From Escherichia coli (GTDB taxonomy: Bacteria > Pseudomonadota > Gammaproteobacteria > Enterobacterales > Enterobacteriaceae), in assembly GCF_011045215.1 (NCBI RefSeq), contig NZ_CP049201.1: a stretch of DNA of 64,000 nt. One strand, given 5' to 3'. The position numbers and the translations under genes are program-made. A model generated the notes under the pieces. It searched no databases, was not told the DNA's origin, and saw only the letters and a list, made by a program, of their open reading frames with translations. Positions 270 to 31,010 of this stretch are shown piece by piece. The first letter of the stretch is position 1, and each line of letters starts with the position of its first letter.

Positions 270-279
270 AGGAGCCATC

Positions 280-1191: not shown

Positions 1192-1275
1192 ATCCCCCTT
1201 CACCTAACCCTCTCCTCAAAGGGGAGATGGCAGAGTGAGGGCATCAGACAGTTAAAATTTAAAAAGGATTTCCTA

Positions 1276-2280: not shown

Positions 2281-2327
2281 TCACCACCCGGTGCGTCGTA
2301 GGGTGCACCGGGTCTCAGGAGAACATC

Positions 2328-3731: not shown

Positions 3732-3811
3732 TTTGCCGGATGGCGCTGCCCCTATCCGGTCTACGGAATGGTGTGGTGTCACCGGTTATTTCGAGAACTG
3801 AATATAGGATT

Positions 3812-4291
3812 ATGATGGATTACGAAGATTTCTCTCCCAAAGAGCAACTACAGCTAACGGTCTGCCAACGTCTGATTGCAGAAAAGAGCTATTTTTCCCA
3901 AGAGGAGCTCCGCCGCGACTTACAGGAGCGTGGTTTTGAGACAATCAGCCAGTCCACCGTTTCTCGTCTGCTCAAGTTGTTAGGTGTCATAAAAATTCGA
4001 AATGCCAAAGGGCTAAAAGTCTATTCGCAGAATCCACAGTTGCGTCCGGCTCCTGATGCCGCGCGCACTGTGTCCGAAATGGTGGTGAGCGTTGAGCACA
4101 ATAGAGAATTTATCCTTATCCATACCGTTGCTGGATATGGCCGCGCAGTGGCACGTGTCCTTGATTATCACCAGTTGCCAGAAATTTTAGGCGTGGTGGC
4201 CGGAAGCAGTATCGTCTGGGTCGCTCCTCGGATGGTGAAGCGTGTCGCTCTGGTGCATAAGCAAATTAATTATTTACTAAGAACGTATTAA
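3812..4291 (+). CDS. ArgR-family arginine repressor-like regulator
   Basis: About 159 aa from the ATG at 3812 (the ORF-track start at 3659 is probably too far upstream); resembles ArgR in the N-terminal winged-helix (...SQSTVSRLLKLLGVIKIRNAKG...) and C-terminal oligomerisation region. Confidence 0.78.
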   Translation: MMDYEDFSPKEQLQLTVCQRLIAEKSYFSQEELRRDLQERGFETISQSTVSRLLKLLGVIKIRNAKGLKVYSQNPQLRPAPDAARTVSEMVVSVEHNREFILIHTVAGYGRAVARVLDYHQLPEILGVVAGSSIVWVAPRMVKRVALVHKQINYLLRTY

Positions 4292-4484
4292 TATTCACAA
4301 ATGCCCGCTTGTATTGACTAATACATACATTAAATCGCTTCATTCGCAAAGCGAGTTTCCTATAATGCCTGATAATGTGCCAGGAGGGAGCATAGTCAAG
4401 CGTGTACGATATAACGTCTCACCGCGTCTGAAATCAGACACTGGCTTGGTGTTTTATTCCCGTTGCTTAATCTATTCCTTGGGT

Positions 4485-4508
4485 CCCTCATTTGAGGGGC
4501 TTTTTTTG
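4485..4508 (+). terminator. Intrinsic terminator (GC stem ccctc/gaggg plus T7 run)
   Basis: Hairpin 4485-4498 followed by tttttttg; ends either the arc operon read-through or a short transcript starting near 4370. Confidence 0.5.
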
Positions 4509-4528
4509 CTCGGCATCAGGAGATAAAC

Positions 4529-4678
4529 ATGAATCCGTTTTATCAAAAAATAAATGCCCCTAGCCGCGAAGTGCTGGAGCTCGTTCTAAAAATCGCAGCA
4601 AAAATTGAAAACCATTCCTCAACCATCGCGGCGTTCGTATGCGCCGCCAATGATGCGCCCGAAAACGCGTCAATATGA
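4529..4678 (+). CDS. Small hypothetical ORF (49 aa) whose 3' end lies in a 63-bp repeat
   Basis: ATG at 4529 preceded by AGGAGA; translation MNPFYQKINAPSREVLELVLKIAAKIENHSSTIAAFVCAANDAPENASI; the last 14 codons recur at 4955-5017. Confidence 0.25.
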   Translation: MNPFYQKINAPSREVLELVLKIAAKIENHSSTIAAFVCAANDAPENASI

Positions 4679-5043
4679 GTTCGCCGGAATATTACTCTGC
4701 TGTCGGGAGTTGAACGCCTGACGACAGGAAATGAGCCAGGCCAGCCACCACGCGGGCTGACAGCGAATCAGAACCTGAGTCAGCCCGGAGCCATTCCCGG
4801 GGCTGCACTTCATCACCTGCCACCAGTACCCGTGTCAGTACTTCGCGACCTGACGCAATTATCCGACTCAGTCCTTCAGAACCCGCCTCCGATACCAGCC
4901 TGGCGCTCGCCCCTGCGCAAGCAAAATAAATCAACCATTGTCAGACTGCGATCATTCGTATGCACCGCCGATGACGCGCCCGAAAACGCGTCAATATGAG
5001 TTCGCCGGAATATTACTCAATATGAGTTCGCCGGAATATTACG
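4634..5043. repeat. Direct repeats: 63-bp unit at 4634-4696 and 4955-5017; 26-bp subunit (caatatgagttcgccggaatattac) in three copies at 4671-4696, 4992-5017, 5018-5043
   Basis: Read directly from the sequence; lies between the ADI operon and the cdiI terminator. Confidence 0.8.
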
Positions 5044-5065
5044 CCTAGCTGGGGGTTTTCTGTGC

Positions 5066-5096
5066 ACAAAAAAATCCCGGCATAATGGCCGGGATT
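5066..5096 (-). terminator. Intrinsic terminator of the cdi operon (minus strand)
   Basis: Palindrome atcccggc...gccgggat followed on the minus strand by a T7 run, just downstream of the cdiI stop. Confidence 0.6.
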
Positions 5097-5110
5097 TGCG
5101 AGCTTTCCCA

Positions 5111-5485
5111 CTATTTCTTGATTCCTAAACGGAACATATCAGTTGGGAATAAAGGTTGTATTATCACTTCATCATTAAAAATGAATAATTTGGGCGATAA
5201 AGCTGTTACGTCATAGATATTTTCAGCGATTAATCTTAGATTTGACCTAAAAACTGGAATACTTGCATCATCTACAAAGACAAACATGTCATCGTTTTTT
5301 ACAGAGTTTGCACACAATAGCTCATCAAAACTCTCATAATCAGAATGCCAGATCTCTGACCAAGTAACACTTCCTTTCGCGAGAGGGTACTTATTTAAAA
5401 TGCCCAGAGCCTCCTGCTGAGCCAGCCCCTCTACTATATTAAAATCAGCACTCAGTGCTTCCCGACACTCATCAAATAAAGTCAT
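5111..5485 (-). CDS. cdiI: CdiI immunity protein (cognate to the CdiA-CT encoded at 5494-6246)
   Basis: 124-aa acidic protein starting 5 nt after the cdiA stop codon; position and size typical of cdiI. Confidence 0.75.
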   Translation of the reverse strand: MTLFDECREALSADFNIVEGLAQQEALGILNKYPLAKGSVTWSEIWHSDYESFDELLCANSVKNDDMFVFVDDASIPVFRSNLRLIAENIYDVTALSPKLFIFNDEVIIQPLFPTDMFRLGIKK

Positions 5486-5490
5486 TTGCT

Positions 5491-14565: not shown

Positions 14566-14580
14566 TCTGATAAACCTGAC

Positions 14581-15108
14581 TTATCTCTCCGGCACATCCA
14601 CAGCAAGCGGGTGCTGCACACGCCACTGGCGCGCCTCTTCACGACTGACCTGTGCACCCCGGAAATTCATCACCCGCAACCCGGTCTGCTGCCCACGGTG
14701 GTACAGCGAACGCCAGCACAGACGGGGAAAAATATCCTGCCGGACAAGACGACTCATATCCGGGGTATGTCCAAAAGGGGCAATCCAGTCACAGACCCAC
14801 ATCCGGTCGCCGCTGTTCCAGTCCGACTGAGGCATGAGAATTGCCGGCTGCGTAAGATAACGCGCCTCTGCCTCCGGGCTGAGCCAGGCCTGGCTCATGA
14901 AGAAAACCGGTCGCCCCTGCTCTGTTGCCACCACATACTGTCGGTGCTTAATCACCGGCAGCAGCAGGTCCGGCAGGGTATGCAGTGGCGCATCACGATG
15001 CAGGGGGGAGTGCATCCACAACCAGACGGCCGCCCCCAGGACTTCCGCCTCATTGACCGGCTCACCGGAATACAGGGGACTCAGAACGTCATATTTCCCG
15101 TTACGCAT
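14581..15108 (-). CDS. cdiC: CdiC, HlyC/TAAT-family lysine acyltransferase
   Basis: 175 aa; WLWMHSPLHRD ... HRQYVV ... WNSGDRMWVCDWIAPFGH closely parallel the HlyC motifs (WLWASSPLHRN ... NQYVLL ... WTSGDRKWFIDWIAPFGD, recalled from memory); sits between cdiB and cdiA. Confidence 0.85.
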   Translation of the reverse strand: MRNGKYDVLSPLYSGEPVNEAEVLGAAVWLWMHSPLHRDAPLHTLPDLLLPVIKHRQYVVATEQGRPVFFMSQAWLSPEAEARYLTQPAILMPQSDWNSGDRMWVCDWIAPFGHTPDMSRLVRQDIFPRLCWRSLYHRGQQTGLRVMNFRGAQVSREEARQWRVQHPLAVDVPER

Positions 15109-15117
15109 GAAACTTTC

Positions 15118-16857
15118 TCAGAAATCCCGGAACAGATTAAAACCGGCTGTCACATCACTCGTCATAAAACCCGCCGGCTTTGAAAACGGACGACCGATGA
15201 AAACGTCATAATCCGTACTGAACAGTTGCCCCCTCAGCCCCACAACACCACCAGCCAGATGACGTCCCACCAGGTATTCACTGCCGGCTCCCCCCACCTC
15301 GCCGTAATCCATTCCCAGATATAACTCCTGCTCCGGCAGTGGCGTACGCCAGGCCAGGTCGTTGCGGATATACCAGCCGTTACTGGCATTCAGCGTTCGC
15401 TCCCCGTCAAAACCACGAACCGTCCAGCGGTTACCGATGGCAAACTGTTCCTGTGGGGTCAGCGGGGTATTGCTCAGCTGGCGCTGATACCGGAAGGAAT
15501 AACTGAAGGGCTGCCCTGCAAGGGTAAAGGGCAGATTAAAGGATGCATTCAACTGCAGGATCTTACTGAGCGCCGTTGCCTCACCGAACGTTTCTTCCGG
15601 CGCCGGCTGTGCACCAAACCAGCGGGTTCCCCGTTGCCAGCTGACACCAGCATCCAGTGTGGCCTGAGAAATATAATGACGGTGCTGCAGCCCAAGTCGC
15701 CAGGCCGCTGTCTGCCGGCGCTGCACCTGGATTTCCGTATCATTAATGTAGTTACGCGACCTGCGGGCCTGAACATCGTAGGTCAGCACCGTTTTCTGCG
15801 TCCCGTTACGGTGCAGTACCCGGCTCAGCTGCATACCCAGATTCTGACTCTCGCCACTGTACTGGTAATCCTCAACCGCACCAGCTACCGTCTGATGGTA
15901 ATCGTAATCACTGGCGGTGACGGAAAACTGCCAGTAGCCGAAAGGCACAGAGTAATGGGCCGTGTAGTTTTTACTGCCCTTACCCCCGTAATGTGGAAAA
16001 TTACGGGTGGCAGAAACATACAGCAGGTCACTCAGGGAAAAAGGATTATCCAGAGAAAATGTTATACCACCGAGATAACGCCCTGTGCTGCGGGTACCTG
16101 AATCATCAAGCGAAAACCCCAGTCGCCAGTATTTGTCCTGTTTGCGGGTAATAAGAATGTCACTTTCCCCTGGCTGCTCACCGGGTACAATTTCCATATC
16201 AGCCTGCACACCCGGCAGTCGTTGCATATTCTCCAGCCCCTGCTCAATGTCCCGTAAATCCAGCAGAGAACCTTCGTGTGCCGGGAATGAGGAATACAAC
16301 TGAATATAGTCATCACTGTCCGGTGTCAGACGCACATGTCGCACAACACCGGGAATAACAACCAGCCGGAGGATACCGCTTTTTAAATCCTGCGAAGGTG
16401 CCAGAACACGGGTGGTGACATAACCATGATCGACCAGACGGTTCTGCAATGTACTCATCAGCAGATTAATTCCTTTCGCCCCCAGGCAATGCCCGACCGC
16501 CCCGTTGGCGATTTTTTGTAAAGGCAGCCAGTGTGGTAACGCATCAGCCCCCTCCAGTTCCGTCTGTTTAATCTGAAAACAGGGCGTTTCAACAGGAAAA
16601 TTAATCTTACGGGCAAAAGAGCCAGGTGCAGAAAGGCGAACATCAGGGGCTGAAGGCGTCAGTTGTTGCTCAAGGGCTTCCTGACGCTGCTGCTGAATGA
16701 TAAATGCATTATCTCCGCTACGCCGGACATCCGCGGCCTGAAGAGATAAAGGCGATAATAAAACAGACATCAGTGTCAGTGACAGCAAGGACGGACAGCG
16801 CCGGAATACGCTTTGTTCCTCAGCCCTCTCGTTCCTGCAACATAATTTTCCAGTCAA
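15118..16857 (-). CDS. cdiB: CdiB outer-membrane TpsB transporter (ShlB/FhaC/HecB family)
   Basis: 579 aa; signal peptide; POTRA-like N-terminal region and beta-barrel C-terminus ending in an aromatic residue; immediately upstream of cdiC-cdiA. Confidence 0.9.
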
Positions 16858-17448
16858 ACGAAAAACCTTTTATTCATGTCATACCAACAATCACCAGCCT
16901 CCTGACGATACCTCCCACCATGTTTTGCGATGGTACGCTACCGCCCTTCCGGTATTTACCCGCATCAACCGGTACCAGAATGTTGAGTAATAAATTTGTC
17001 AACTCTGAATTGGTTTAATTTTGATCATTATAGAATGAAGATCTGAAAATTCTCAATATTGCAGACATATCGATCGATATGTAGTTATCACGTAGTTATT
17101 TATTCCAACTAATATCGCAAAAGCAGCATATTGCAAAACTTATAACCACGGAGAACAAAAAACGACAGAAAATTATTCCGTAAGATGCTTCAAATACAGC
17201 CAGTCAACACTGAAAAAAGTGATTTTTGATTAAAATCATTGAAGTTTATGCAGTACAGAATCTGAGCGGTTCTCAGCGAAAGTCAGAAGAAAGGGAGGTG
17301 AGGTAAAAGGCAGAAATCAGAGTGACAGGAATGCACAAAAAGCAAAAAAAAATCAACAAAACAATAAATTAACATACCCCGAAAAAGCATCCGCAACGTA
17401 CCGGGTAATAACAACAATATCGTGTAAAACAACATTGTTCCGGAAGTT

Positions 17449-17640
17449 ATGTCTGAAGATATCCCGTTACCCAAAGTCGGTCAGCGATACAGAGACGATC
17501 ATGGTGCGCTTGTCACCGTAACCAGTGTTGAGGAAACCCGGGTGGTATTTATGCGGGACGGCTATCCACATCCCTGTATGCGGCCAATGTACAACTTTCC
17601 AGGAAAATTCAAACCCGAACCCCGGGAAGAAACAGAATAA
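17449..17640 (+). CDS. Hypothetical small protein (63 aa)
   Basis: ORF with a compact protein-like sequence (MSEDIPLPKVGQRYRDDHG...); no recognised domain. Confidence 0.3.
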   Translation: MSEDIPLPKVGQRYRDDHGALVTVTSVEETRVVFMRDGYPHPCMRPMYNFPGKFKPEPREETE

Positions 17641-17692
17641 AACGAAATTCCTGCCGGCAATCACACTGCCTGATGGCAGCATAATCCACTTT

Positions 17693-17926
17693 TTAATTCT
17701 CATCCCCGAAGACAAGCCCAGAAAACCACTCCGGGTGTTCACTGTATGCCGTGTTCAGCGCATCCCAGGAAACGTTTATATAAAAGCTGTCCTGCAATCT
17801 GCGGGTAACAACTTCTGCCAGGCGATTCCGGTTATCCGCCAGTCCGGCATAACCTCTCTCTGCCAGCCACTCATTCAGTTCATGTTCCAGAGACAGATTG
17901 ATAATATCGTAATCGGACCTTGCCAT
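17693..17926 (-). CDS. Hypothetical small protein (77 aa)
   Basis: ORF downstream of and co-oriented with the 207-aa gene; amphipathic, protein-like composition. Confidence 0.35.
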   Translation of the reverse strand: MARSDYDIINLSLEHELNEWLAERGYAGLADNRNRLAEVVTRRLQDSFYINVSWDALNTAYSEHPEWFSGLVFGDEN

Positions 17927-18012
17927 TCCCGTTTCCTTAGCACATGTTTTCAGGCACGGGTAAAAGTATAAAGAATGTCATACTGCTGCCAGAGCCCCCC
18001 CTGATGGTCGTA

Positions 18013-18636
18013 TCAGAGATGGTATGCCGGCACTTTGCGGGTTGTTCCCGTCAGGTTATCGTGCACCTCCACATTCGTTGTCACTACCGGCATTCCGCTC
18101 TGTCTTAATCTCAGGACATCAGCCGCAATACGCTGACTGCCAGACCAGAACAGCCCGTCCAGTGCGGTCACCAGTAAACCTGCTTCCAGCGCATACTTCA
18201 GCCGTTCACGGGACGCTTTCACTTCCCGGGCAACCTGCTGATATGGCAATGATGTGTTTTCATTCCCAACCACGCGACGAATACGGTGAGACAGATGATA
18301 CCGGAATGTATCCGGCACACCCGAAAGGCTGGCCTTCAGGCTGTACACGCAGCCAAACCGTTTATCGTTGAACACCACATTTTTCTGGCTGATGCCCCAT
18401 TCTTCACGCAGCGCGGCAATCAGTTGTGGTGTCCGGGTAAGCAGCAAGCGAAAAGGCAGCTCAAAACTGGTGACGTAATCCACATTCAGCAGTGCAATAC
18501 GCAGCCGTTCTTCTGGCCCGGCCCCTGTCTGCCGGCACTCATCCAGAACATCCTGCCACTGCCGACGAAGACGTGGAGATTCATTCAGTTCTGTAAAACA
18601 GTATTTATTCACCAGATAATCAATTCGTGTACGCAT
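18013..18636 (-). CDS. Hypothetical protein (207 aa)
   Basis: ORF with balanced composition; no recognisable motif. Confidence 0.45.
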   Translation of the reverse strand: MRTRIDYLVNKYCFTELNESPRLRRQWQDVLDECRQTGAGPEERLRIALLNVDYVTSFELPFRLLLTRTPQLIAALREEWGISQKNVVFNDKRFGCVYSLKASLSGVPDTFRYHLSHRIRRVVGNENTSLPYQQVAREVKASRERLKYALEAGLLVTALDGLFWSGSQRIAADVLRLRQSGMPVVTTNVEVHDNLTGTTRKVPAYHL

Positions 18637-18895
18637 AATATAGATTCAGGAAACAATAAAAGCTGAATAAGCCCATATTTCATTGGGAAAACTGCAGTGT
18701 CAATACCAAAATGTTGCTCAAATCGTAGTAGAAGTATGGGATGTAGCGTTCAGGGTATTAAGAAACTTTTAGTTGACTACGATTGGTAAAATACATTAAT
18801 TTTTATTGCGGTTGCGTTTAATAGACTGCGGAGCGTGTTAACGCTCTAAATAAAAGTACTTAAGATGGCATAAATGTTACAAGACCAGGATAATT

Positions 18896-19291
18896 ATGGC
18901 TGAATTTACTGTAAGATCGAAGGATGAACTCGAAAAAGCTCAAAACAGCAGAGCTGAAATTATAATTATTGAAGGAGAGTTAGCAAATAAAATTAAAAAA
19001 GCAAAGGCTGTAACAAAAGTAAGTGGTGTTGTTATTGCTGCCATGATCGCAACTTGTGCTACTATTCCACTCACTGGTGGAGGTTCTGTTTTAGCTGTTA
19101 GTTCTTTAGCTGCATTATCCGGACTTGATATCGCTGTTATTATTGCTGCAGCATCCATTGGTATTGCTCTGGTTATTACTGTTTTCCGCGATTACGAAGA
19201 AATTGAATTTAGCAATGGAAAGATGATATTAAAGTTAAAACGTAAAAAAACTGAGTCTACAACTGACAAAAATGAGAAAAAGCAGAAGTGA
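18896..19291 (+). CDS. Hypothetical small membrane protein (131 aa, two predicted TM helices, Lys-rich tail)
   Basis: AT-rich ORF; hydrophobic segments VSGVVIAAMIATCATIPL and LDIAVIIAAASIGIALVITVF. Confidence 0.45.
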   Translation: MAEFTVRSKDELEKAQNSRAEIIIIEGELANKIKKAKAVTKVSGVVIAAMIATCATIPLTGGGSVLAVSSLAALSGLDIAVIIAAASIGIALVITVFRDYEEIEFSNGKMILKLKRKKTESTTDKNEKKQK

Positions 19292-19598
19292 AAGGTCTGT
19301 GCATCGGAATATGAACATATTTTAGTAATATTTTAATAAATCGTAAAGCCTCTATATTCAGAACCACGAAATAGAGGTGTTTTAAACTGCAACTGTTATC
19401 TCAATTTTTATCGAGGCGCCATTAAAACAAATACCCCGTTCTGCTGTTTTCTGATTATGCCATGAGATTAAAAACACTAATTTTTGATTGAATTGTATAT
19501 ATACATTGTAATACAAGATTTAAATACATATTTCTTCTTTTTTATCTGTAATCTATTATTATCAATAATCACATGAACAATATCAGAGGCAACACATT

Positions 19599-20372
19599 AT
19601 GAATAAAGCTGAAGTTCTGGAAAAAGGTTATTGGATTGAAATCAGTATTGATGCATATGCACAAAAAGTTAAGGGTATATCACGAGATGACTACCCACCA
19701 TTACGTTGTATCTCATGCGAGAAACCTGTCCATGATAGCGGATTAGTCACTCCCAATCCTGATTATAGCCCCAGATTCTCTCATTCCGCTTCACCAGAAA
19801 ATAAAGAGTTCTGTCCCCTAAGCGCAAGATCTCAACGTTTTTCTGGTTTTTCAGGTAATGAACGCTCTGCTTCAGCAGAAATTGCAGTATCTCGCCGAAA
19901 TCAATTCATGCAATTTGATAACCTCTATCGGGCCTGGGTTGTTTGTAGAGCATTAAGGGGAGGTGAAGGGAAGCTTGATCAAAAATCATTCATTCGGATG
20001 GTCAGGATCGCGGATAGTTTTGGGATCTGGCATTATAGCTATATGCCTGACTGGGGAATCCCTCTTATGCTAATGTTAATGGATAACCACCCGACACCAA
20101 ATGGTAAATCAACTTTTTTCTATTCATTAAAAAAAGAACGTGTTCGAAAAGGTGTAAAATGGCAAGATCTAAATGTCAGACTTGAAGCACATTGGGTAAA
20201 TGGTGGTAACCGCATAGTTCCAAATAAAGATAAAAAAGCTTCATTCTTGCTCACCATTCCATTTGCTAAGTCTGTTATTGATGAAATACTGAGTAAAGAA
20301 AATCTGTCATGGTGCTCAAAAAACTCTCTACCAATATTGCATTCTTTTAGCATTAGAGCTTTAACCACTTAA
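19599..20372 (+). CDS. Hypothetical protein (257 aa) with an N-terminal CxxC pair
   Basis: AT-rich ORF with purine-rich sequence just upstream; CISCEKPVHD motif; no recognised family. Confidence 0.45.
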   Translation: MNKAEVLEKGYWIEISIDAYAQKVKGISRDDYPPLRCISCEKPVHDSGLVTPNPDYSPRFSHSASPENKEFCPLSARSQRFSGFSGNERSASAEIAVSRRNQFMQFDNLYRAWVVCRALRGGEGKLDQKSFIRMVRIADSFGIWHYSYMPDWGIPLMLMLMDNHPTPNGKSTFFYSLKKERVRKGVKWQDLNVRLEAHWVNGGNRIVPNKDKKASFLLTIPFAKSVIDEILSKENLSWCSKNSLPILHSFSIRALTT

Positions 20373-20662
20373 TTGAGGAAGTAATGATACAAGCTACAGT
20401 ATTGGTGACGAATCTATAGACAAGGAGATAAAAACCAAATATCAGAATTATTTTTGATAGTGCTGGTAAAGAAGCGGTGTTTGATATCAGCATGTTTATC
20501 GGAAAAAAGCTTACCTGGAGCTTTGAAAAATTGCAAAGCAGGGCCTGACAATGAAGGCCCTAATACTGTACTAAATGTTAACTCAGTACCAAATCACAAG
20601 GAAAAGTATTTTTTCTGGTAAGATTCTATATACATAATAAATCACCTTATAGTTACAATAGG

Positions 20663-21166
20663 TCAAAAACCGCTGTAGCCAAAGTTACGCTGGCCTGATG
20701 CTTTAGTGTCGAGCTTCGTCAAATAATCCAGACGTACCAATAAGCGCTGGTACTGCTCAGGGAAATCAGGATCGTTAATATCCAGGATGTAACGCCCATT
20801 AGTAGGGAAATGAACTAATCCCTGGTGATCTTCCAGTTCCAACCCTAAGGCACTGTACCAGGCTCCGGTAATTAACCCTCTCAGGGTGTCAGAGCGCTCA
20901 TAGTCTCCCAGGTGGTAATAGGCGTCTTTGTTAAACAACAGGCAGACGTGATAATGACATTTAAAGGACTGCGTATATTCTTTCGCCCAGATAATACAAA
21001 CCGACGTTGCGTAGGTGCGTTTGCCTTGTTGTTTTTTACGGTGTTGATCTGCATTAATTTTCGCATTCAGCGAGTTACGGAAACGAGATATTTCTCCGGG
21101 GGTCAGGTTAGGAAAACAGGTAATGGTATCCCCGTTGTCAATCACAGGAGGGTAATGGAGATCCAC
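20663..21166 (-). CDS. YfjJ/YagK-like (inovirus Gp2-type) prophage protein
   Basis: 167 aa; resembles the CP4-57 YfjJ family and the paralogue at 21739-22302. Confidence 0.5.
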   Translation of the reverse strand: MDLHYPPVIDNGDTITCFPNLTPGEISRFRNSLNAKINADQHRKKQQGKRTYATSVCIIWAKEYTQSFKCHYHVCLLFNKDAYYHLGDYERSDTLRGLITGAWYSALGLELEDHQGLVHFPTNGRYILDINDPDFPEQYQRLLVRLDYLTKLDTKASGQRNFGYSGF

Positions 21167-21280
21167 CCGTATTGCTGTTATTCTGGAAGTATTTTTAATA
21201 TTCGTATTGATAGTTCTCAGAGATATATCACACTCTAGATATTTTAATTAAGTATCAGTTCGATATCGGCATATTGTACA

Positions 21281-21644
21281 CTACCTCTGGTAGATGATGA
21301 GATCAGATACAGGGATCAACTGACGGTGAGCGCAGTCCCCACATTTTATCCAGGGCTTACTGCATATTCCCAACAGCCATTCGTTAGCCAGGTAGACGAA
21401 TACCCTTTCCGCTGGTTTTGCTTTCCCATCGAAGGGCCCATACATCATCACGCCCGCGAAACAGTCGACAAAATAACGCAACTTTCTCATCCGTGGATAA
21501 TACGAAAACGCACTGCACAGGGCTCTGCGGTTTACGTCGCCATTCAATCCCATGAGCTTCAAGTAATGAGACCAGCCGGGTATTTTCTGCCCGCAGTACT
21601 GCTAGTTCATCGCTGTCAGATTTATAAACCATATGCGTTATCAC
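21281..21644 (-). pseudogene. Fragmented gene remnant (two overlapping minus-strand frames)
   Basis: ORFs 21281-21562 and 21384-21644 lie in different frames and overlap; consistent with a frameshifted relic. Confidence 0.3.
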
Positions 21645-21738
21645 TTGTACCTGTCTCCCGGCGGCACCACGACTGAAATTCGTGTGAAGGCAAATCCACG
21701 CGATAACTTACGATAGTTCGGACATAAGCCCCCATAAT

Positions 21739-22302
21739 TCAGTTATGTCGTGGTCGGCCGCGGTTACTTTTTTCGGGAAGCCTGCTACGCCCCAGAATAA
21801 TACCGTGTTCTTTCTGATCCTGTTTCGCCAGATAGCTAAGGGCGTAACGTAAGTCGTCTACCGCAGATTTATCACTATAGTGAATTACATGATCGATACG
21901 CACCGGGTATTTATCTTTAGCCCGGCACAGGTGAAAATAACCCTCCCCTTCCGTGATCCGCCTCCAGATATCTCCCAGTTGCCTGGATATCTGATAAGAG
22001 TTCTTGTGACGTTGTCCATCCAGATAGCCGATAAAATGAATATGAAGCCCTTTGTCTGGTGTATATTCCATTACCCAGTAATATCCCGCCAACATCGTCT
22101 GGGTTTCGCTAAGTAAGCGGTACATTTCCATACACATACTGTGCTTACAGGAAAGACCAAAACTGGGCGTGTCTTTCCTGTAAGCAAAATCAATTCTGAA
22201 AGGTAACAGTTTAGAAAAACGTTGAAACAGACCTTCCATGTGTTCATTCACATCTTTCAGAATCGCGAAATTCATTTCGTAATTGGGATTGGCATTATAC
22301 AT
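21739..22302 (-). CDS. YfjJ/YagK-like (inovirus Gp2-type) prophage protein
   Basis: 187 aa; family resemblance to CP4-57 YfjJ; prophage gene context. Confidence 0.55.
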   Translation of the reverse strand: MYNANPNYEMNFAILKDVNEHMEGLFQRFSKLLPFRIDFAYRKDTPSFGLSCKHSMCMEMYRLLSETQTMLAGYYWVMEYTPDKGLHIHFIGYLDGQRHKNSYQISRQLGDIWRRITEGEGYFHLCRAKDKYPVRIDHVIHYSDKSAVDDLRYALSYLAKQDQKEHGIILGRSRLPEKSNRGRPRHN

Positions 22303-23240
22303 TTTATAGTCCTTACTTTATAAAACTGACAGGAAAGTGGAATTACATAAATACTGAGAGTACAGAAACGCCGTACCGCGGCATTAATAAAAGAGGTAAC
22401 CAGCAGCACAGACAACCTGATAAAACTGTTTCGTATTACCTCATTACAGTAATAGGGTAATGATTCAGAATACAGTAAGACTTTCTTAAACTGAGGACCA
22501 GAACGAATTACAATAAAAAACACACCTCATATAATTGAGTTTAAGAAAGCACCATTCAATTACTTACAGGATATAATCTGATCTTCACAAAAGTCAGTAC
22601 CGGGTAGCCACAGACAACATCGCTATTAATATTGCCGTACCATTAAGTAAAAACAGAGACTCTGCAGAGAGAGCCTACAGATATTTAACCTCACAATAAG
22701 AAGATTATTTCATACAGAAAATATTATATTTACCTATGCTTATAAACTGTAACGGAGCCATAACATACTCTAATAGTGTTCCGGTACGTAACCAGTGTTA
22801 AGTGCGTACAAGACAACATAACATAACAGATTTATGTTCCCAACATTACACCACATAATTCACCATACAGCTTCCCCCCATATGCTTCACTGCGTAGTGT
22901 ATGGAGATATATGTATTACACACATACAGAATACTTAGCATAGAGAGGAGTGACATTACGATAAAAGAGACAACATAACAGATCACATAACTCCCACTAA
23001 TAATACTAATTAACCTAAATTATTTATTGAACACGAAAACAATGAAGGCCCCACCTCACCTCAGACTAAAGCCGACAATATCCTGAGCAACACTCTATCC
23101 AATAGTAAATAGTGGTTACACCAGTTATATTTACTGACTGACCTGTACCAGAGTTTTCTAATACAACGCTGACATGGTAAAGACATTAGTCTCCTCCGCA
23201 AGTAGCAGAGGAGACTATATGTACTCAACGATTAAGTCGT

Positions 23241-24692
23241 TCAGAGGTCAAAGTTAGGTGCGACACACAACGTTTTTCCCTCAATAACCGGTACAACTCT
23301 GTTTTGTTCATACAGTAAATCCAGTAACCAGTTGATTTTATCCTTTTTCCGGAAACGGTTCGGGCCACGCTGTAAAATGTCATTTTTTTTCATACAGAGG
23401 ATCCCCTTCTCAATGCAATAGCTTTTTATCCAGTTGAAAAGTTCAAGCTCCTCTGGAATGAGTCGCACAGGTACGGTCAGGGCGGAGTTGTCAAAAGTTA
23501 ACGGATTAGACAACCGCACATACTCATTACCGTACCATATTGCTAATTCTCTCGCCATTTCTGCAGTGTAAGGGGAAATCTCCCCCTCTTCACCGCTCGA
23601 ATGGTAAATAAGTCCTGCCAGTCTTGCCATATACTCTGCATTTTTAGCAGCATATTCCCGGCAATGTCTTAAAGGCCCCAATCCCCCCAGCTTCGATTCC
23701 ACATCATTGTAATAATCCGTCCAGATTCTGGCAGCCTGAGGAGAAAAGTGAAGGCAACGTCGTTCACCACTCATCGCCAGACTTTCATCAATAAGCTCAT
23801 TGATCCTCTCTTCAAACAAATCCTGATACTGTGATGAATAATTATCTCCGGTTATTATCCTTGTCCCCTGCGTTGATGTTGGTTGACACATCAAAAACCT
23901 TGCATGATGTCCTGACGTTTTCACAAGTTCTTTTTTTCGCGTACAAAAACCTTTGTGGTAAACATCAGGCTGAATCATCACCGATATCGTCAGTCTTGGC
24001 TCCTTCAAATTAATTCCGGGAGATGATTTCCTGTCGATGAAAAGAGAACCTCCATCCCACAAAGTGTTAATAATTCCCAGTTTACTCATGGCCCGGCTGT
24101 CAAAAATTACCCCCCCTTCACTGGATACAAGAGCAAAAGAGCGATTGCTATCAGAGTAATATTTTAACATTCCCTCTATCGTTGTCTCATTAAAAATTGT
24201 TCGACGTATCTGCGGCGGAACAGGAGATTTATTCAGATGCGTTTCAAGCTCTGATTCTGTTGCCTTGTAATCTTTACCGGCACGAATCTCTTTATGAAAT
24301 TTTGATTCCAGCGCTTTTTGTTTTTGCTCCCATATTTCCTTTTCTGTACTGTAATTCTCAACCAGTTTCGCGTATTCTTCCGCCAGGGCTTCATCCCTGA
24401 GATAAAATGCTTTCATAAACACTTTATCCACGGTCGTTTTCCTTTCACCGGAATCAGCCAGAATCAGAGAGTAAAGATTAACAGGCCCATGTAAATTTCC
24501 AGGTCTGCACACGTCAATCTGATTCTGACAGGCAATTGAGATCGCTGTTAATGCGGATGTTGCCACCATAGCCAAAGGTGCCTGTGTATTTTTTTGAGTT
24601 TCAATTATTGCATTTCTCACCAGCGGTGGTAGTGCATATATCGGATAAGGATTTTCTGGTGCAAGTAAGCACATAAAAGCCTCTCTTTTCAT
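23241..24692 (-). CDS. DUF3987-domain protein (YfjI-like, primase C-terminal-like)
   Basis: 483 aa; sits downstream of alpA as yfjI does in CP4-57. Confidence 0.6.
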   Translation of the reverse strand: MKREAFMCLLAPENPYPIYALPPLVRNAIIETQKNTQAPLAMVATSALTAISIACQNQIDVCRPGNLHGPVNLYSLILADSGERKTTVDKVFMKAFYLRDEALAEEYAKLVENYSTEKEIWEQKQKALESKFHKEIRAGKDYKATESELETHLNKSPVPPQIRRTIFNETTIEGMLKYYSDSNRSFALVSSEGGVIFDSRAMSKLGIINTLWDGGSLFIDRKSSPGINLKEPRLTISVMIQPDVYHKGFCTRKKELVKTSGHHARFLMCQPTSTQGTRIITGDNYSSQYQDLFEERINELIDESLAMSGERRCLHFSPQAARIWTDYYNDVESKLGGLGPLRHCREYAAKNAEYMARLAGLIYHSSGEEGEISPYTAEMARELAIWYGNEYVRLSNPLTFDNSALTVPVRLIPEELELFNWIKSYCIEKGILCMKKNDILQRGPNRFRKKDKINWLLDLLYEQNRVVPVIEGKTLCVAPNFDL

Positions 24693-24892
24693 TAATGGGT
24701 TAGTAAAATAGCAGCAACTCCCGCTACAATAGCGAAAATAGCTGCTATTCAGACCTGATGCTCTGAGAAATACTGAGCATTTGTAGATCTGATGTTTAAT
24801 AAACCGATAAGGTTAATTCAGTGCAGACTGTATTATTTACCACGAAATATCATTCATATTTCTCATTCTTAATACCTCCAGAAATTATTTCA

Positions 24893-25090
24893 CTAATACC
24901 TTTCCCCCGGTCTTTTCCCTTTCTCCAGAACCATAGTGTAAATATTAACGGCCCCACGTAAATTTCCGGGGCTGCATACGTCAACCTGATTCTGACAGGC
25001 AATTGACATCGCTGTTAATACTGACATTGCAACCAGAGTCAGAGGTACTTGTTTATTGTATTGAGCTTTAATTATTGCCTTCCCTATCAT
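24893..25090 (-). pseudogene. Duplicated 5' fragment of the DUF3987 gene
   Basis: 65-aa ORF (…TLVAMSVLTAMSIACQNQVDVCSPGNLRGAVNIY…) paralogous to the N-terminus of the 483-aa protein (…LAMVATSALTAISIACQNQIDVCRPGNLHGPVNLY…); flanking DNA is also duplicated. Confidence 0.5.
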
Positions 25091-25316
25091 TGATGGTCAC
25101 GTATATACTGAATACGGCATATCCGGTTTGATGTAAGACATAAATGCTTCCTTTTTCGTAATACGTTTCGGTTATAGCAGCAATTACCGCTACAATAGCG
25201 ACAATAGCTGCTCTTTCAACAATGAATGCTGGAAATTCTGTTTATCAATTAAACTTCTGGCTAAATTGTTCTTATGCTTCTTTTTCCTCCTGAGGTGATC
25301 ACGTGATGACAAAAAC

Positions 25317-25625
25317 TTATCTGCTCATGGTCATATCTGAAGAAAGCGTATGTCGCACTTCGTCATTAACACCTTTGACTGCTGATCTGGCAGGTACAGT
25401 ATGTAAAGTAAGCCATTCGTCAATAGCTGATGAACGCCAGCCCACAGAACCACTACCAAGACGTACCGGCCTGGGGAAGGTTGCATCGTAGTATTTCGAT
25501 AACGGATTCATTTTTTCGTAAATTGTCGAACGAGATATACCTAACAATTGGCTCAGTTCAGGCATCCGTAAGATGCGTGAAGGAGTCCAGCAGTATCCGG
25601 ATTGATCTGGCATTTTATCCCCCAT
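25317..25625 (-). CDS. alpA: AlpA-family phage transcriptional regulator (HTH)
   Basis: ...RILRMPELSQLLGISRSTIYEKM... is the AlpA-type helix-turn-helix signature; start codon uncertain (25625, 25613 or 25697). Confidence 0.7.
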   Translation of the reverse strand: MGDKMPDQSGYCWTPSRILRMPELSQLLGISRSTIYEKMNPLSKYYDATFPRPVRLGSGSVGWRSSAIDEWLTLHTVPARSAVKGVNDEVRHTLSSDMTMSR

Positions 25626-25822
25626 AGTGTGGTGAACTGTCGTTACAGTTTGTATTCCCCGGGTAAATTTGTCTGCGTAAAAAAATGGGCTGAGCAAAAA
25701 GACAATAAATAATTAAAAATCAATACGATAGAAAACAACAGCATTATTGTTATTTTACTTTCTCCTTATCACTGTCGATTCTCATTATCATTCATTGGTA
25801 AAAAAACAGCAAAAGAGGCCCT

Positions 25823-26585
25823 GGTAATGACTCCAGTCAGTAGTACAGTGTTTTCGATAAATGAACCAATGGCTTTTCGTGAATTTCCAGGGAGCGTGAA
25901 AAGCAAATCGTTTTCCGGGCTGGTCGTTTGATGTGAGTACGAAGTGTCAGATTGTTGCGCTCAATGCGCCGGGTAAATATCTTGCCGACAAGATGCTTAT
26001 CCTGTGGCATTTCTCTGGTATAACTGCTCCGGTTGTCTCTGGTTATCATGCCTGTGGAGAATGGCTTCAGGAGTTCCGGCAACTCACGACATGTTTCATC
26101 AGTGCGAGGACCAAAAGTGTAAGCCAGCACACCTCCAGATTTGGTGTTATACGCATACCAGTGCCACTGCTGACGAGCTTTGTTTTCGACAAAACTCCAT
26201 TGTTCATCAAGTTCGCAGATAAGCGCCACATCGGCACTGACGTCTGGAGATGTGGTTACTTTGCGTGGTGAGCGTTTTATAAAGTGAGAATGACGGTGTT
26301 GATATCCACCTTCAGCGTTCTGGAGCTATCGCGAACCCGACTCCGTTATGAACCATTTCAACAATTTGCTCTTTGATGCCTGGTTTTCGGGTTTCGTAGA
26401 TGTAATTCAGTTGAAATACACACATTTGCAGGATTAGCACTGGAAACGCTCATGATCTGAGGTGCTGTGATCATAATGGTACACTTTATAGGAATTACAG
26501 CGGGGAGAATGTACTGTAACTGTTGCCATATGGTCTCCAGATACCAATAGAATATCACATTAATCTATCGTCAGAAGGCATCACC
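25823..26585 (-). mobile_element. IS1-family insertion sequence, divergent and degenerate (763 bp)
   Basis: Terminal sequence ggtaatgactcca at 25823 and gcatcacc at 26578-26585 match the IS1 inverted repeats; the 130-aa ORF 25837-26229 resembles the InsB C-terminus (MALICELDEQW...RIERHNL...); the InsA-like frame is interrupted. Confidence 0.6.
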
Positions 26586-26725
26586 GGGGCCTTCTGACAT
26601 AATCTGTTAATACGTGTACTATTACCCTGTTCAGAAAATATTGATTCAAAAATGAAAACCAGTTAACAGAAAAGCAAAATGATATAATGTTAAAATTTTA
26701 TATAGTGCAATAAAAGGAGAATGTT

Positions 26726-28543
26726 ATGTATAATTTTATCACTATAATGTATGATGTCTTTTCATGTTTTGGTGTTCTGGCTAAAAACCAGAATACCCGT
26801 GACATCCGAAATATTAAAAATTTTTCCTCACATCAACATTCACTGGGCGACATGTTTGATGAATTAATAAACATTATTGATAAAGAACAAGTATTGAGTA
26901 CAGAACAACGAAAAGTTATATTTAGGAGATATGAAGATCTCTATGTTAAGCTAATGCACTATTCTGTTTTTACAGACAAAACACATCAAATAATAAAACA
27001 AAAATATTTTAATGACATTGTACCAATGATTCTCGCACTCGACATCAGGAACACATATCGCCCGGATAATGAGATGGCATTTTACTATCATATTCATTCT
27101 TTTCTCACTCAGATACCGGATAATGAGGATGATATATATCATGCTGCAAGGACATATCTGCGAAATTACATTAAGTTATGTTTATCCGGATACACACCAG
27201 CGAATGCGCATTTCAAAGATATCTTTGATGGCGTATATGAATTCATTCGTAATATTCGCAAAAACAGTACACCAGGAAAAACAAAACTTACCGCAACTAT
27301 CAACACATGCAAAGAAACCTGTAAACATCTGCTTTATTTAAGTAATGAAGACAAGGAAAAAATAATTTCTGACTTAGATAAAATTCAAGTTGCATGTTAT
27401 TATCTCACCATATTACTGGCTTTCGAAAGACGAACTTCATTAACAAGCGCCCTGGCAACTTTATATAAAATGCTGATAAGCGAAAGAGAAGTTTCAGAAT
27501 ATGAATGCCAGTTATTATATTTAACCAACCCAATAGATGTAATGAATATACTGAACAAACACATATATTACTTTCCTAATGAGAACTCACCATTTTATAC
27601 ACTGAAAATTGACAGTGCATTATCGTGGGAGGCCATTGACGCAATACGAGACTATAGTATTTCTGATATTTATCTTTATCCTGAACAAAAAACAATAAAT
27701 TGTGTCGTTGAGATTGAAAACATTGTCTTTGGCGGTTACATTTATACATTGAACAACGGCGTCACATTACAAAACATAGAAAACACTTTAAAAGATTCTT
27801 CATGCCATTATGTCTTAAATGGCTATACAGAATTTGTTAACTGTTTGATACAACTTACTTCAGGAAAGACTGAAAGTGTTCATCGCACCATCAATAAACT
27901 GAACTATGAGAAATTACCTTTTGGATTTATCATTGCCGCGTTTGCTATACTAAAGATAGCATTTAAAATAAAATTCAGTAAAAATCATGTAAATATCCGA
28001 GCATTATTAAATGACATCAATTATTTTATGACTTATCAGGGCGAGTCCATTAACCTTATTTCACTGGATCACGAATACCCAGAGTCCTGTCTTCAAAATG
28101 ACACAAACACATATTTATTAGGAAGAGTAATATTTCTGTATAACTCAATGATTTATAAGTTCATAAACTGTCAGGAACATGAAACCAATAACATTCACTC
28201 AGCTATGATAAATAACCTATTACAGGAAGTTGATATAGCCCTTGGTAAAATAAATAACATTATAGACAGCAGAAATATATCAACCCCCCATGAACTAGCA
28301 AATATTCTTACCCGCGAAAAAATACTTACAACACGGGAAAAAAAAGGAAACCTGATAAGCCTGTTTGATGGATTCACTTTATTCCATTGTGTTGGAATGA
28401 TAACCTTTCTTATCCATTATCTCAGAACACCTGAAGAAAAAGTTGAAAATATATTTATGTTATATGGTGCAGATAAAAACAATAAACTACGCAGAAGACT
28501 GATTTATGACGCACTAGGAATAATTCAGTCTCAGCAGGAGTGA
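26726..28543 (+). CDS. Hypothetical 605-aa protein, strongly AT-rich, no recognised domain
   Basis: Long uninterrupted ORF in low-GC DNA with AGGAGA 7 nt upstream of the ATG; Asn/Ile/Tyr/Lys-rich; two short hydrophobic segments; no P-loop or nuclease motif recognised. Confidence 0.6.
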   Translation: MYNFITIMYDVFSCFGVLAKNQNTRDIRNIKNFSSHQHSLGDMFDELINIIDKEQVLSTEQRKVIFRRYEDLYVKLMHYSVFTDKTHQIIKQKYFNDIVPMILALDIRNTYRPDNEMAFYYHIHSFLTQIPDNEDDIYHAARTYLRNYIKLCLSGYTPANAHFKDIFDGVYEFIRNIRKNSTPGKTKLTATINTCKETCKHLLYLSNEDKEKIISDLDKIQVACYYLTILLAFERRTSLTSALATLYKMLISEREVSEYECQLLYLTNPIDVMNILNKHIYYFPNENSPFYTLKIDSALSWEAIDAIRDYSISDIYLYPEQKTINCVVEIENIVFGGYIYTLNNGVTLQNIENTLKDSSCHYVLNGYTEFVNCLIQLTSGKTESVHRTINKLNYEKLPFGFIIAAFAILKIAFKIKFSKNHVNIRALLNDINYFMTYQGESINLISLDHEYPESCLQNDTNTYLLGRVIFLYNSMIYKFINCQEHETNNIHSAMINNLLQEVDIALGKINNIIDSRNISTPHELANILTREKILTTREKKGNLISLFDGFTLFHCVGMITFLIHYLRTPEEKVENIFMLYGADKNNKLRRRLIYDALGIIQSQQE

Positions 28544-28730
28544 AACGTTAAAACAGGCAAATTGTTTTTTATAAACAGGAGATTGTTGAGTAATCCCCTG
28601 TTTATAAAAATACGCTTTCCTGACGATCTGATAATTATCAGCTCAATACATTTGACATAAAAGCGGTTCCTTAATTACTACTGCCACGATCACATATCAA
28701 ATCATGATCGTACAATATACATTTTCACTA

Positions 28731-29933
28731 TTATTTATTCACAATTTGAGACATCACATAATCCGCCCATGCCTGCATCATCGGTACACGCTGCTCCAGT
28801 AGATCAGTGCGATGATATGCCGCCTCAACCTTATTTTTCAGCGTATGAGCGAGCGCCCTTTCCGCCAGATCCCGCGAATACCCCTGTTCACTACACCAGT
28901 CCCTGAATGTTGAGCGAAAACCATGTGCCGTGGCAACTCGCCCCGGAATGTCACTGACGGCTTTCTTTTTACGCAGAAAACTTGTCAACACCATATCGGA
29001 AAGGATCTGCTGCTTTCTGGGTGAAGGGAACACCAGTTCATCATGCAGGCCACGTATATTTTCCAGAATGTAAATAGCCTGCCGGGATAAAGGAACACGA
29101 TGCTGTAGCCTAGCTTTCATTCTTTCTGCAGGTATAGTCCATACCCGCTTATGAAAATCAATTTCAGCCCAGCGCATTCCCCTGGCTTCGCCCGAGCGAG
29201 TTGCTGTAAGTATCACCATTAATAACAGTGCGCGGGTAACATTATAAGGTTCATCACTATACACACTGGTCGCCACAAAAAGCGGTAACTGCCTCCAGGG
29301 CATTGCGGGTTGGTGTTCATCACGTCCTCTTGTCTGCTGAGGAAGCAAATGGTCAACCACATCAACAGGATTTGCCACACAAAAACCGTGCGCCCATCCC
29401 CACTGCATAACAACATGAATGCGCTGTTTAACCCGGCTTGCCGTTTCTGACAAGGTTAACCAGACTGGACGCAATGTTTCTGCCACGTCCGCAGCCGTAA
29501 TCGAATCCAGCGTTTTTGCTCCCAGTTGAGGAAACGCGTAATTCTCAAGCGTCGATAACCACTGCCTTACATGCTTTGGATTTTCCCATCCAGGAGACAG
29601 TTCTGCATGTACACGCCTGGCTGCATCGGCAAATGTTGGGATAACGACTTTCTCAGATTCAGCCTTTTTAATCTCCAGAGGATCATCACCTGCAGCAAGT
29701 TGCTCTCGCATTATCCGGGCAGTACGTGCAGCTTCAGCAATACTGACCTCTGGGTAAGTTCCCAATCCAGCATTACGTCTTTTTTGTGTCACCGGACTTA
29801 CATAACGAAAAACCCATTTCCCCCGCCCCTTTACTGAAGAAGGATGAAGGGTCAGTCCGGTAATTCCCCCATGGGGCAATGGTTTGTCATCAGGTTTGAT
29901 ATGTCTTGCTTTCGTATCCGTCAATACTGCCAT
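28731..29933 (-). CDS. int: P4-type (tyrosine recombinase) phage integrase
   Basis: 400 aa; N-terminus MAVLTDTKARHIKP...; C-terminal catalytic region with HGFRST...; ends ...LAHT...AYHRTD...RVPMMQAWADYV, conserved in P4-family integrases. Confidence 0.9.
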   Translation of the reverse strand: MAVLTDTKARHIKPDDKPLPHGGITGLTLHPSSVKGRGKWVFRYVSPVTQKRRNAGLGTYPEVSIAEAARTARIMREQLAAGDDPLEIKKAESEKVVIPTFADAARRVHAELSPGWENPKHVRQWLSTLENYAFPQLGAKTLDSITAADVAETLRPVWLTLSETASRVKQRIHVVMQWGWAHGFCVANPVDVVDHLLPQQTRGRDEHQPAMPWRQLPLFVATSVYSDEPYNVTRALLLMVILTATRSGEARGMRWAEIDFHKRVWTIPAERMKARLQHRVPLSRQAIYILENIRGLHDELVFPSPRKQQILSDMVLTSFLRKKKAVSDIPGRVATAHGFRSTFRDWCSEQGYSRDLAERALAHTLKNKVEAAYHRTDLLEQRVPMMQAWADYVMSQIVNK

Positions 29934-30149
29934 ACGCTAATTCCCGTCACTCTGGTATGCCATCCAGTATGCCATTAGTCTCTCGCTTCACTAAGAATAC
30001 ATTAGATAATATCGGACAACAAAAAGTGTAATACATTGTTTATAATGAAATTATATAACACCCCTGGATTAAGTCAGATTTATTTCAGGCGGTCCCCCTC
30101 ACCGCCATATTTAAATAAATATCCTCCGGCATAGCCGGAGGTTTTTCAA

Positions 30150-30860
30150 ATGCGCCTATAAGGCTCTCTTACCAGCCGCGCCCTAACAGGCGCACACGAT
30201 CTGACATTTGCATCCAACTTCGTTACTTACGGCCCGTAAACGGGCTGCCCGGATAGGGAATCGATAACTGCTCTCCCATTTCATCCTCTTCAAGCTGGTG
30301 CTTTATGTAATCCTGTATCTTCGCCGTGTTCTTACCCACCGTATCGACGTAGTACCCTCTGCACCAGAACTCCCTGTTCCTGTATTTGAATTTCAAATCC
30401 CCAAACTGCTCATAAAGCATCAGACTGCTTTTCCCTTTCAGATATCCCATAAAGCCGGATACGCTCATTTTGGGCGGGATCTCCACAAGCATATGGATAT
30501 GATCTGCACAGCATTCAGCTTCAAGAATCCGTACGCTTTTCCACTCACACAGCTTTCTCAAAATACTGCCTATTGCTCTACGCTTCTCTCTGTAGAACAC
30601 TTGTCTTCGGTATTTTGGCGCAAAAACTATGTGATATTTACAGTTCCATCGGGTGTGCGCTAAGCTCTTTTCGTTCCCCATTGGGACCCCCTTTTGATTT
30701 CTTGTTTGACACTTGCAGTTGCCAGACCGCAAGGTGTTTTAACAAATCAAAAGGGGTTTTAATAACTGGCTCAAAGCTGAAAGCTTTCCGGAACCCCCAG
30801 CCTAGCTGGGGGTTTTCTGTGCACAAGAAGAGCCCGTACGAAAGTACGGGCTTTTTTTTC
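30150..30860 (-). mobile_element. IS200 element (ends approximate)
   Basis: tnpA flanked by palindromes (acggcccgtaaacgggctgcc at about 30232; gcccgtacgaaagtacgggc plus T8 at 30831-30858); boundaries not determined. Confidence 0.5.
30223..30684 (-). CDS. tnpA: IS200 transposase TnpA (IS200/IS605 family Y1 HuH transposase)
   Basis: MGNEKSLAHTRWNCKYHIVFAPKYRR...HIHMLVEIPP...YY motifs; near-identical to IS200 TnpA as recalled; start taken at Met17 of the 169-aa ORF. Confidence 0.85.
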   Translation of the reverse strand, partial: PMGNEKSLAHTRWNCKYHIVFAPKYRRQVFYREKRRAIGSILRKLCEWKSVRILEAECCADHIHMLVEIPPKMSVSGFMGYLKGKSSLMLYEQFGDLKFKYRNREFWCRGYYVDTVGKNTAKIQDYIKHQLEEDEMGEQLSIPYPGSPFTGRK

Positions 30861-31010
30861 GTATATTGCACACACCGGGTGCCCCCGCCCACGTCTGTTA
30901 GGGCGAGGGGAAATCGTGCACATCAACTGTCTGATTGCTCAGTCAACAATCAAAATGCGCAAGAGAGTACAGAACATATATGCGCTATCTGGTCACTTCC
31001 TGTAACTTCC

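Follow-up and report, generated by a model that had tools for sequence, protein, structure and literature searches.

Two copies of a 27-mer around a cdi and integrase region of Escherichia coli as the very probable left ends of independently inserted IS200C elements, one intact and one truncated by an IS66-family element

The stretch of Escherichia coli DNA analyzed here, in the following termed the window, comprises 64,000 nucleotides of contig NZ_CP049201.1 (RefSeq assembly GCF_011045215.1) and features a 27-mer, GCCTAGCTGGGGGTTTTCTGTGCACAA, that is present in two exact plus-strand copies at 5043-5069 and 30800-30826. The copies stand in direct orientation and bracket about 25.8 kb containing cdiBCAI, a hypothetical block and an integrase. 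Identity ends on both sides of the 27 nucleotides, with c/a at 5042/30799 and a/g at 5070/30827, and no further match with up to three mismatches was found in the window or in 100 shuffles. Each copy is adjoined by a strong hairpin, the two hairpins differing in sequence and both folding far better than shuffled controls. An exact direct pair with unlike hairpins following each copy had been noted in a first-pass annotation of this DNA and is confirmed by our window search and by folding. The features relevant to its origin are collected in Table 1. Comparisons within the species are based on a survey set of 5,426 E. coli genomes, to which the genome containing the window does not belong, and no record in the collection covers at least 80% of window positions 14000-31000.

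Table 1. Coordinates of features in and around the two 27-mer copies (window positions)
Feature	Position	Strand	Basis or remark
IS66-family right terminus, third stacked copy, 62 bp	4634..4695	+	Repeat analysis
IS66-family right-terminal fragment, 321 bp	4696..5016	+	98% identical to DNA 3' of tnpC in mip270_22
IS66-family 26-bp terminal inverted repeat, reverse complement GTAATATTCCGGCGAACTCATATTGA	5017..5042	+	Abuts the IS200 stump
27-mer copy 1, remnant (nt 1-27) of the left end of a second IS200C	5043..5069	-	27/27 identical, with no identity past the IS end
Intrinsic terminator of the cdi operon, 3' of cdiI (predicted)	5072..5097	-	DNA fold -10.8 kcal/mol, z -4.5; probable target of the lost IS200
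cdiI immunity gene, last in the cdi operon	5111..5485	-	Pfam CdiI_ImmP, E 5.9e-34; identical loci so annotated in RefSeq
P4-type tyrosine integrase of the serX island	28731..29933	-	Pfam Arm-DNA-bind_3, Phage_int_M, Phage_integrase
tRNA-Ser (serX) 3'-end fragment CCCCCTCACCGCCA (30094-30107) plus TATTTAAA; island/backbone junction	30090..30115	+	K-12 homology
Complete IS200C, 711 bp	30116..30826	-	K-12 empty-site comparison; ends uncertain by 2-3 nt (A/T runs at both junctions)
Right-end subterminal hairpin	30123..30141	-	DNA fold -10 kcal/mol, z -4.45
tnpA, Y1 (HUH) transposase, 152 aa, intact	30223..30681	-	Pfam Y1_Tnp PF01797
IS200 5'UTR / art200 region	30691..30814	-	Rfam STnc490 RF01405, 146 bits vs gathering score 56
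Left-end palindrome CCCCCAGC-cta-GCTGGGGG, nt 15-33	30794..30812	-	DNA fold -11.7 kcal/mol, z -3.3
27-mer copy 2, IS200 left-end nt 1-27	30800..30826	-	Stops exactly at the element terminus
Intrinsic terminator of the serX tRNA repeat unit (predicted)	30829..30858	+	Outside the IS; target adjoining this IS200

The right-hand copy of the 27-mer is part of an intact IS200C that resides in backbone DNA between the 3' end of the serX tRNA-Ser and its terminator. The empty site in K-12 reads CCATATTTAAA/GAAGAGCTCGTACG, the slash marking the junction, and the window carries 711 bp inserted at this point with no target duplication. In the same way, the K-12 serX-ycdU intergenic region, ...CCCCCCCTCACCGCCATATTTAAA/GAAGAGCTCGTACGAAAGTACGGGCTTTTTTTT..., appears in the window as two halves split by 711 bp. 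The empty-site comparison fixes the ends of the element at 30116-30826; the interval 30150-30860 originally assigned to IS200 thus lies about 34 nt too far to the right, and it encloses the hairpin at 30829-30858, which the same comparison with K-12 proves to be external to the element. The 27-mer had also been placed upstream of tnpA, a description that is incomplete since the 27-mer is the terminal 27 nt of IS200 itself and comprises the 3' arm, the loop and two nucleotides of the 5' arm of the left-end palindrome. For IS200, Ellis et al. (2015; PMC4513863) located a terminator palindrome at nt 12-34 of the left end, a hairpin with which the element terminates transcription in both directions.

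All features by which the IS200 group of the IS200/IS605 family is recognized are present between 30116 and 30826. The sole gene encodes a Y1 transposase that matches Y1_Tnp (PF01797) over profile positions 2-121 of 121 (E 3.8e-38) and whose counterpart in the syntenic locus of strain GF4-3 is annotated as IS200C transposase. The element has the expected length of about 700-710 bp, lacks terminal inverted repeats and a target-site duplication, and carries hairpins near both ends, the left-end palindrome and a structured 5'UTR, with a terminator role predicted from position. Its right-end hairpin is followed by the T-rich tail ATATTTA up to the end of IS200C. The left end lies against a short conserved top-strand target, as is the case for 31 of 31 distinct flanks. 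Identity to IS200C copies annotated in RefSeq amounts to 98.6-99.8%, and we see no substantive difference between this intact copy and the IS200C known from E. coli; the copy at 5043 is restricted to nt 1-27.

To the right of the element, between ycdU and a two-partner secretion pair, window positions 31011-51340 hold a fatty-acid/polyketide-like cluster that is absent from this place in K-12. According to the annotation of the syntenic GF4-3 locus, its products include ketosynthases, an ACP, FabZ-like and SDR-family enzymes, a holo-ACP synthase, an ABC transporter and a lipoprotein-sorting protein. The two-partner secretion pair consists of a ShlB-type transporter (45820-47439) and a haemagglutinin-like protein (47528-51340).

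To the left of the IS200, the integrase is adjoined by a tRNA-Ser 3'-end fragment. Position 30094 is the first with homology to the backbone of K-12, NCTC9064 and DA33137, and the end of the annotated tRNA-Ser corresponds to 30107, so that the stretch 30094-30107 can be taken as the tRNA-derived att core; it is located about 160 bp from the start of the integrase gene. Within the window, the best second copy of the tRNA-Ser 3' end shows 4-5 mismatches in 18 positions and ARAGORN detects no whole tRNA gene, which places the far end of the island beyond the window. The arrangement agrees with the tRNA-associated serX/serW islands of E. coli that carry P4-type integrases, with which it shares the integrase adjoining a tRNA-Ser 3'-end repeat and a mosaic cargo of cdi, defence-like and IS genes. 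It differs in that the 27-mer forms no part of the system and in that serX and the second att site lie beyond the window. Behind serX, K-12 has three repeats of 181 bp (K-12 locus, 3740-4653) that each comprise the last ca. 22 nt of the tRNA and a terminator; in other strains, RefSeq lists such repeats as RtT sRNA. The window retains a single unit, which is interrupted by IS200 (30090-30115 and 30827-30879). The serX repeats provide several available copies of the att core of the integrase.

It had been suggested that the two 27-mers are att-like direct repeats limiting one acquired segment, which would imply that they were made or used by the neighboring tyrosine integrase and delimit a single island of 25.8 kb. 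Their direct orientation, the fact that they bracket cdiBCAI, the hypothetical block and the integrase, and the distance of only about 870 bp between one copy and the integrase gene fit this idea. However, the att core is the tRNA-Ser 3' end at 30094-30107, and the right-hand 27-mer is situated about 700 bp beyond this island/backbone junction, shows no relation to the tRNA and belongs to an IS in backbone DNA that occupies the same site in island-free strains. Indeed, all four combinations of island and serX IS200 exist: the window and GF4-3 contain both, EC2 and GXU-23-25-310 have the island but not the IS200, NCTC9064 and DA33137 have the IS200 but not the island, and K-12 has neither. Island and IS200 are each found without the other, and they represent independent events. 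Uninterrupted ...CACCGCCATATTTAAAGAAGAGC..., with no IS200 and no 27-mer, follows the integrase in EC2 and GXU-23-25-310, such that the same island end exists without the repeat, while serX loci free of the island either lack the 27-mer altogether (K-12) or contain it within a whole IS200. The serX-unit terminator, whose GC stem at 30831-30852 lies between A- and T-runs (DNA fold -10.4 kcal/mol, z -4.7), follows uninterrupted and directly after CCATATTTAAA in K-12, EC2 and GXU-23-25-310. Overall, IS200 is present at the serX site in 14 of the 5,426 genomes.

Further observations speak against the two 27-mers as att sites. The joint predicted upon loss of the segment, in which one 27-mer links the IS66 repeats to the serX terminator and which corresponds to the single copy at an empty site for which a search had been proposed, was found in none of the 5,426 E. 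coli genomes. The left-hand 27-mer is found at the same cdiI junction even where the neighbors of the cdi locus differ on the other side. Finally, the DNA to the left of 5043 harbors an arc operon, which is linked to ter genes in mip270_22, and is thus itself accessory, implying that 5043 is an internal module joint and not an island end. Taken together, we regard a function of the 27-mers as att sites as hardly credible.

The other origin that had been considered for the repeats, as relics derived from IS200 ends, applies very well to the left-hand copy, which is identical to nt 1-27 of the IS200C left end. In strain SCU-101, a complete IS200C (711 bp, 98.6% identical) sits against the same cdiI terminator with the junction ...TTTTCTGTGCACAA/AAAATCCCGGCATAATGGCCGGG, and the outer junction of the window copy is the one seen there. 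Of the 5,426 E. coli genomes, 35 have 67 nt or more of the IS200 left end at the cdiI-terminator junction, and the IS-free site, GATGCGCAAAAAAATCCCGG, exists in MP1 and 25-07338. Identity up to the terminus, combined with the full element and the empty site in relatives, shows by sequence comparison that the 27 nt at 5043-5069 correspond to the left end of a second IS200C and are to be viewed as its remnant. This element would have been located just past the U-tract of the cdi terminator in the same orientation as cdi. The break lies two nucleotides inside the 5' arm of the left-end palindrome and the left-end hairpin is consequently lost (DNA fold only -1.8 kcal/mol). The stump, with neither hairpin nor transposase, is predicted to be inert. 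As a side note on the cdi operon, cdiC, encoding an HlyC-type acyltransferase (Pfam E 3.7e-32), lies between cdiB and cdiA at 14581-15108; in the otherwise similar cdi locus of mip270_22 no cdiC is annotated and cdiA is longer.

The SCU-101 element deserves attention for another reason. This IS200 (4317-5027 of its locus) combines a right-end flank with hypT, as found in EC2 (17283-18008), with a left-end flank formed by the cdiI terminator, and can on account of these combined flanks be understood as a recombinant of two IS200 copies that joined two island modules. IS200 copies do therefore serve as crossover points in these islands, and it is conceivable that a directly repeated IS200 pair recombined homologously in the window as well and thereby assembled or moved the 25.8-kb segment, in which case the 27-mer would be a true module boundary. 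The position of the stump at the outer edge of the cdi operon would agree with this. Against it, both junctions in the window bear their own ordinary insertion signature, each with a terminator and an IS-free counterpart, the serX IS200 and the island occur separately, the segments at 17.1-30.1 kb and the cdi operon are found in other combinations, and the corresponding deletion product is present in 0 of 5,426 genomes. We saw no sign of a crossover between the two IS200 copies of the window and consider such an event improbable. Both 27-mers are instead, very probably, nt 1-27 of the IS200C left end stemming from two independent insertions in the same orientation, with the copy at 5043 truncated by an IS66-family element.

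The truncating element is represented in the window by right-end fragments only. Three such fragments of one IS66-family element, all ending in ...GGAATATTAC, are stacked head-to-tail between 4634 and 5042. Strain C311 contains an intact IS66-family element that includes tnpA, tnpB and tnpC and whose right end is the repeat abutting the stump, and in an O111:H8 strain the same repeat likewise constitutes an IS66-family right end against the stump. Assignment to the family is based on the repeat GTAATATTCC..., which starts with GTAA and is part of the intact tnpA/B/C element of C311; the 8-bp target duplication typical of the family is documented by an element in strain STEC2017-197. The stump junction occurs with a doubled IS66 repeat in mip270_22 and mip270_05 and with a single repeat in C311, two O111 strains and one food isolate, while in strain 1303 the full junction query was matched in two pieces.

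The C311 element is flanked by two unlike sequences, GAACTTAT and GCCTAGCT, and this indicates a rearrangement or an adjacent deletion rather than a simple insertion. The reciprocal junction, the inner IS200 up to GCCTAGCT followed by the IS66 left repeat, was found in 0 of 5,426 genomes in a search with a guessed repeat that differs from that of C311 at 5 of 26 positions, and insertion with subsequent loss is for this reason indistinguishable from an IS66-mediated adjacent deletion. Within the stump of STEC2017-197, a second IS66-family element is present with a clean 8-bp duplication (CCTAGCTG; locus positions 480-520 and 2990-3030), only 1 nt from the break in the window, and in the O43 strain RM10042 an end of the IS66-family element ISEc8 interrupts this IS200 at left-end nt 67 (locus positions 2990-3010). 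The structure thus resembles the solo IS ends that remain after nested insertion or after a deletion mediated by an IS, with which it shares the terminal IS fragment fused to the terminal repeat of another IS and an IS66 copy without matching target duplications. It differs from them in the break at the top of the IS200 palindrome and in the second IS66-family insertion one nucleotide away in another strain. The position of the break and this neighboring insertion suggest a locally preferred IS66 target, and the IS200 left-end palindrome may be favored by IS66-family elements.

The 27-mer is not confined to the two sites in the window. It accompanies every IS200C copy. In E. coli, 2,350 genomes contain the inner IS200 left end, which amounts to about 9,200 places with up to 35 per genome, and the exact 27-mer is contained in 28 stretches from 13 other Enterobacterales genomes, mostly as the end of an IS200 copy. 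The genera concerned include Brenneria, Citrobacter, Kluyvera, Pluralibacter, Entomohabitans, Kosakonia, Mangrovibacter and Yersinia. The repeat is therefore scattered in high copy number across species and order, a distribution which the first-pass annotation itself had named as incompatible with a special relation to island ends.

Two contigs of the soil metagenome-assembled genome CTSoil_132 lead to one further consideration. Here, the 27-mer follows a similar sequence of about 26 nt ending in GCATTAC(A), while the flanks differ on both sides, and from this one could suppose that the copy at 5043 belongs to a small, independent repeat, composed of the IS66 repeat and the IS200 tip, that spreads by itself. 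In E. coli, however, every observed junction of IS66 repeat and 27-mer is located at the one cdiI terminator, and this single site fits the inheritance of one event. In addition, the partner sequence in the soil genome differs from that in E. coli. A self-spreading repeat is, in our view, very improbable as a source of the window copy. In the two CTSoil_132 loci, the 27-mer is found on the minus strand at 12684-12710 (L012) and 445-471 (L013), no IS200 sequence precedes it and the flanking hairpins differ on both sides. One possibility is that a different IS66-like end was fused to the 27-mer at the same nucleotide, another that the two loci contain a small composite repeat.

The presence of unlike hairpins next to both 27-mers finds an explanation in the sites at which IS200 is inserted. 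We collected distinct left-end flanks from E. coli and the 13 other Enterobacterales genomes, allowing one variant base in the palindrome arm. At all 31 of these sites, the IS200 left end is positioned 5-6 nt beyond the stem of an intrinsic terminator. Every flank reads CACAA/NAAAA followed by a GC stem, with ...GTGCACAA preceding N-A-A-A-A, which on the top strand corresponds to the target stem-TTTTN/TTGTGCAC (31/31 distinct flanks). When flanks of the exact 27-mer were folded, 28 of 30 reached -13 kcal/mol or lower within 40 nt, compared with 7.9% of random 40-mers from the same loci, whereas flanks of the IS200 right end fold like random sequence (Mann-Whitney p = 2e-19). CFT073 provides an example in the interval from thrL to thrA, where IS200C immediately follows the U-tract of the thr attenuator. 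The hairpins beside the two 27-mers are thus accounted for by the choice of terminator-side sites by IS200 and are not a feature of island ends.

Terminator-like sequences have been reported to be enriched immediately upstream of IS elements, with the strongest effect for the IS200/IS605 family (preprint 10.1101/2025.07.22.666184). An explicit rule of fixed spacing to a stem-TTTTN motif was not found in the searchable literature, older subscription papers being outside this search. As the right end of IS200 is made up of a GC hairpin and a T-rich tail, the target resembles the right end, and the conserved spacing suggests that TnpA may recognize the structure of the terminator. Tentatively, and with somewhat less than an even chance of being correct, we propose that transposases of the IS200 group select intrinsic terminators by structure, at a fixed distance of 5-6 nt past the stem and within the U-tract, with the GC hairpin and T-rich tail mimicking the right end of the element, and that the IS200 left-end palindrome is in turn possibly a preferred target for the IS66 family. 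Adjacency to terminators could alternatively have its source in selection for harmless sites and not in recognition by the transposase. The terminator-targeting class C group II introns, REP-targeting IS and the RAYT Y1 enzymes are presumably comparable in that the site is set by a stem-loop rather than by a long sequence. We take the class C group II introns to differ in mechanism, as they rely on a ribozyme and a reverse transcriptase, whereas IS200 employs a Y1 HUH transposase acting on single-stranded DNA.

On the basis of these comparisons, the following course of events appears likely for the window. One IS200C was inserted between the 3' end of the serX tRNA-Ser and its terminator, outside of the integrase island. 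Another, with the same orientation as cdi, was inserted immediately behind the U-tract of the cdi terminator. This second IS200C would then have been broken at the top of its left-end palindrome by an element of the IS66 family, and all but 27 nt of it would have been lost, leaving a stump fused to the IS66 terminal repeat.

The kind of feature encountered here, an IS200C accompanied by an IS200 end scar, is already known. The 27-mer pair is ordinary transposon debris and therefore no marker for the ends of an acquired island, the limits of which should not be drawn by it: the serX island ends at 30094-30107 and runs to the left past 5043. The stump instead marks a place where cargo modules meet and where, past the cdi terminator, IS200 and elements of the IS66 family have accumulated. 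The regular spacing between IS200 and terminators provides a useful rule for locating IS200 ends and relics. Should the proposed structural selection of intrinsic terminators hold true, IS200 would be a terminator-homing element, which would help to explain its harmlessness and its long persistence.
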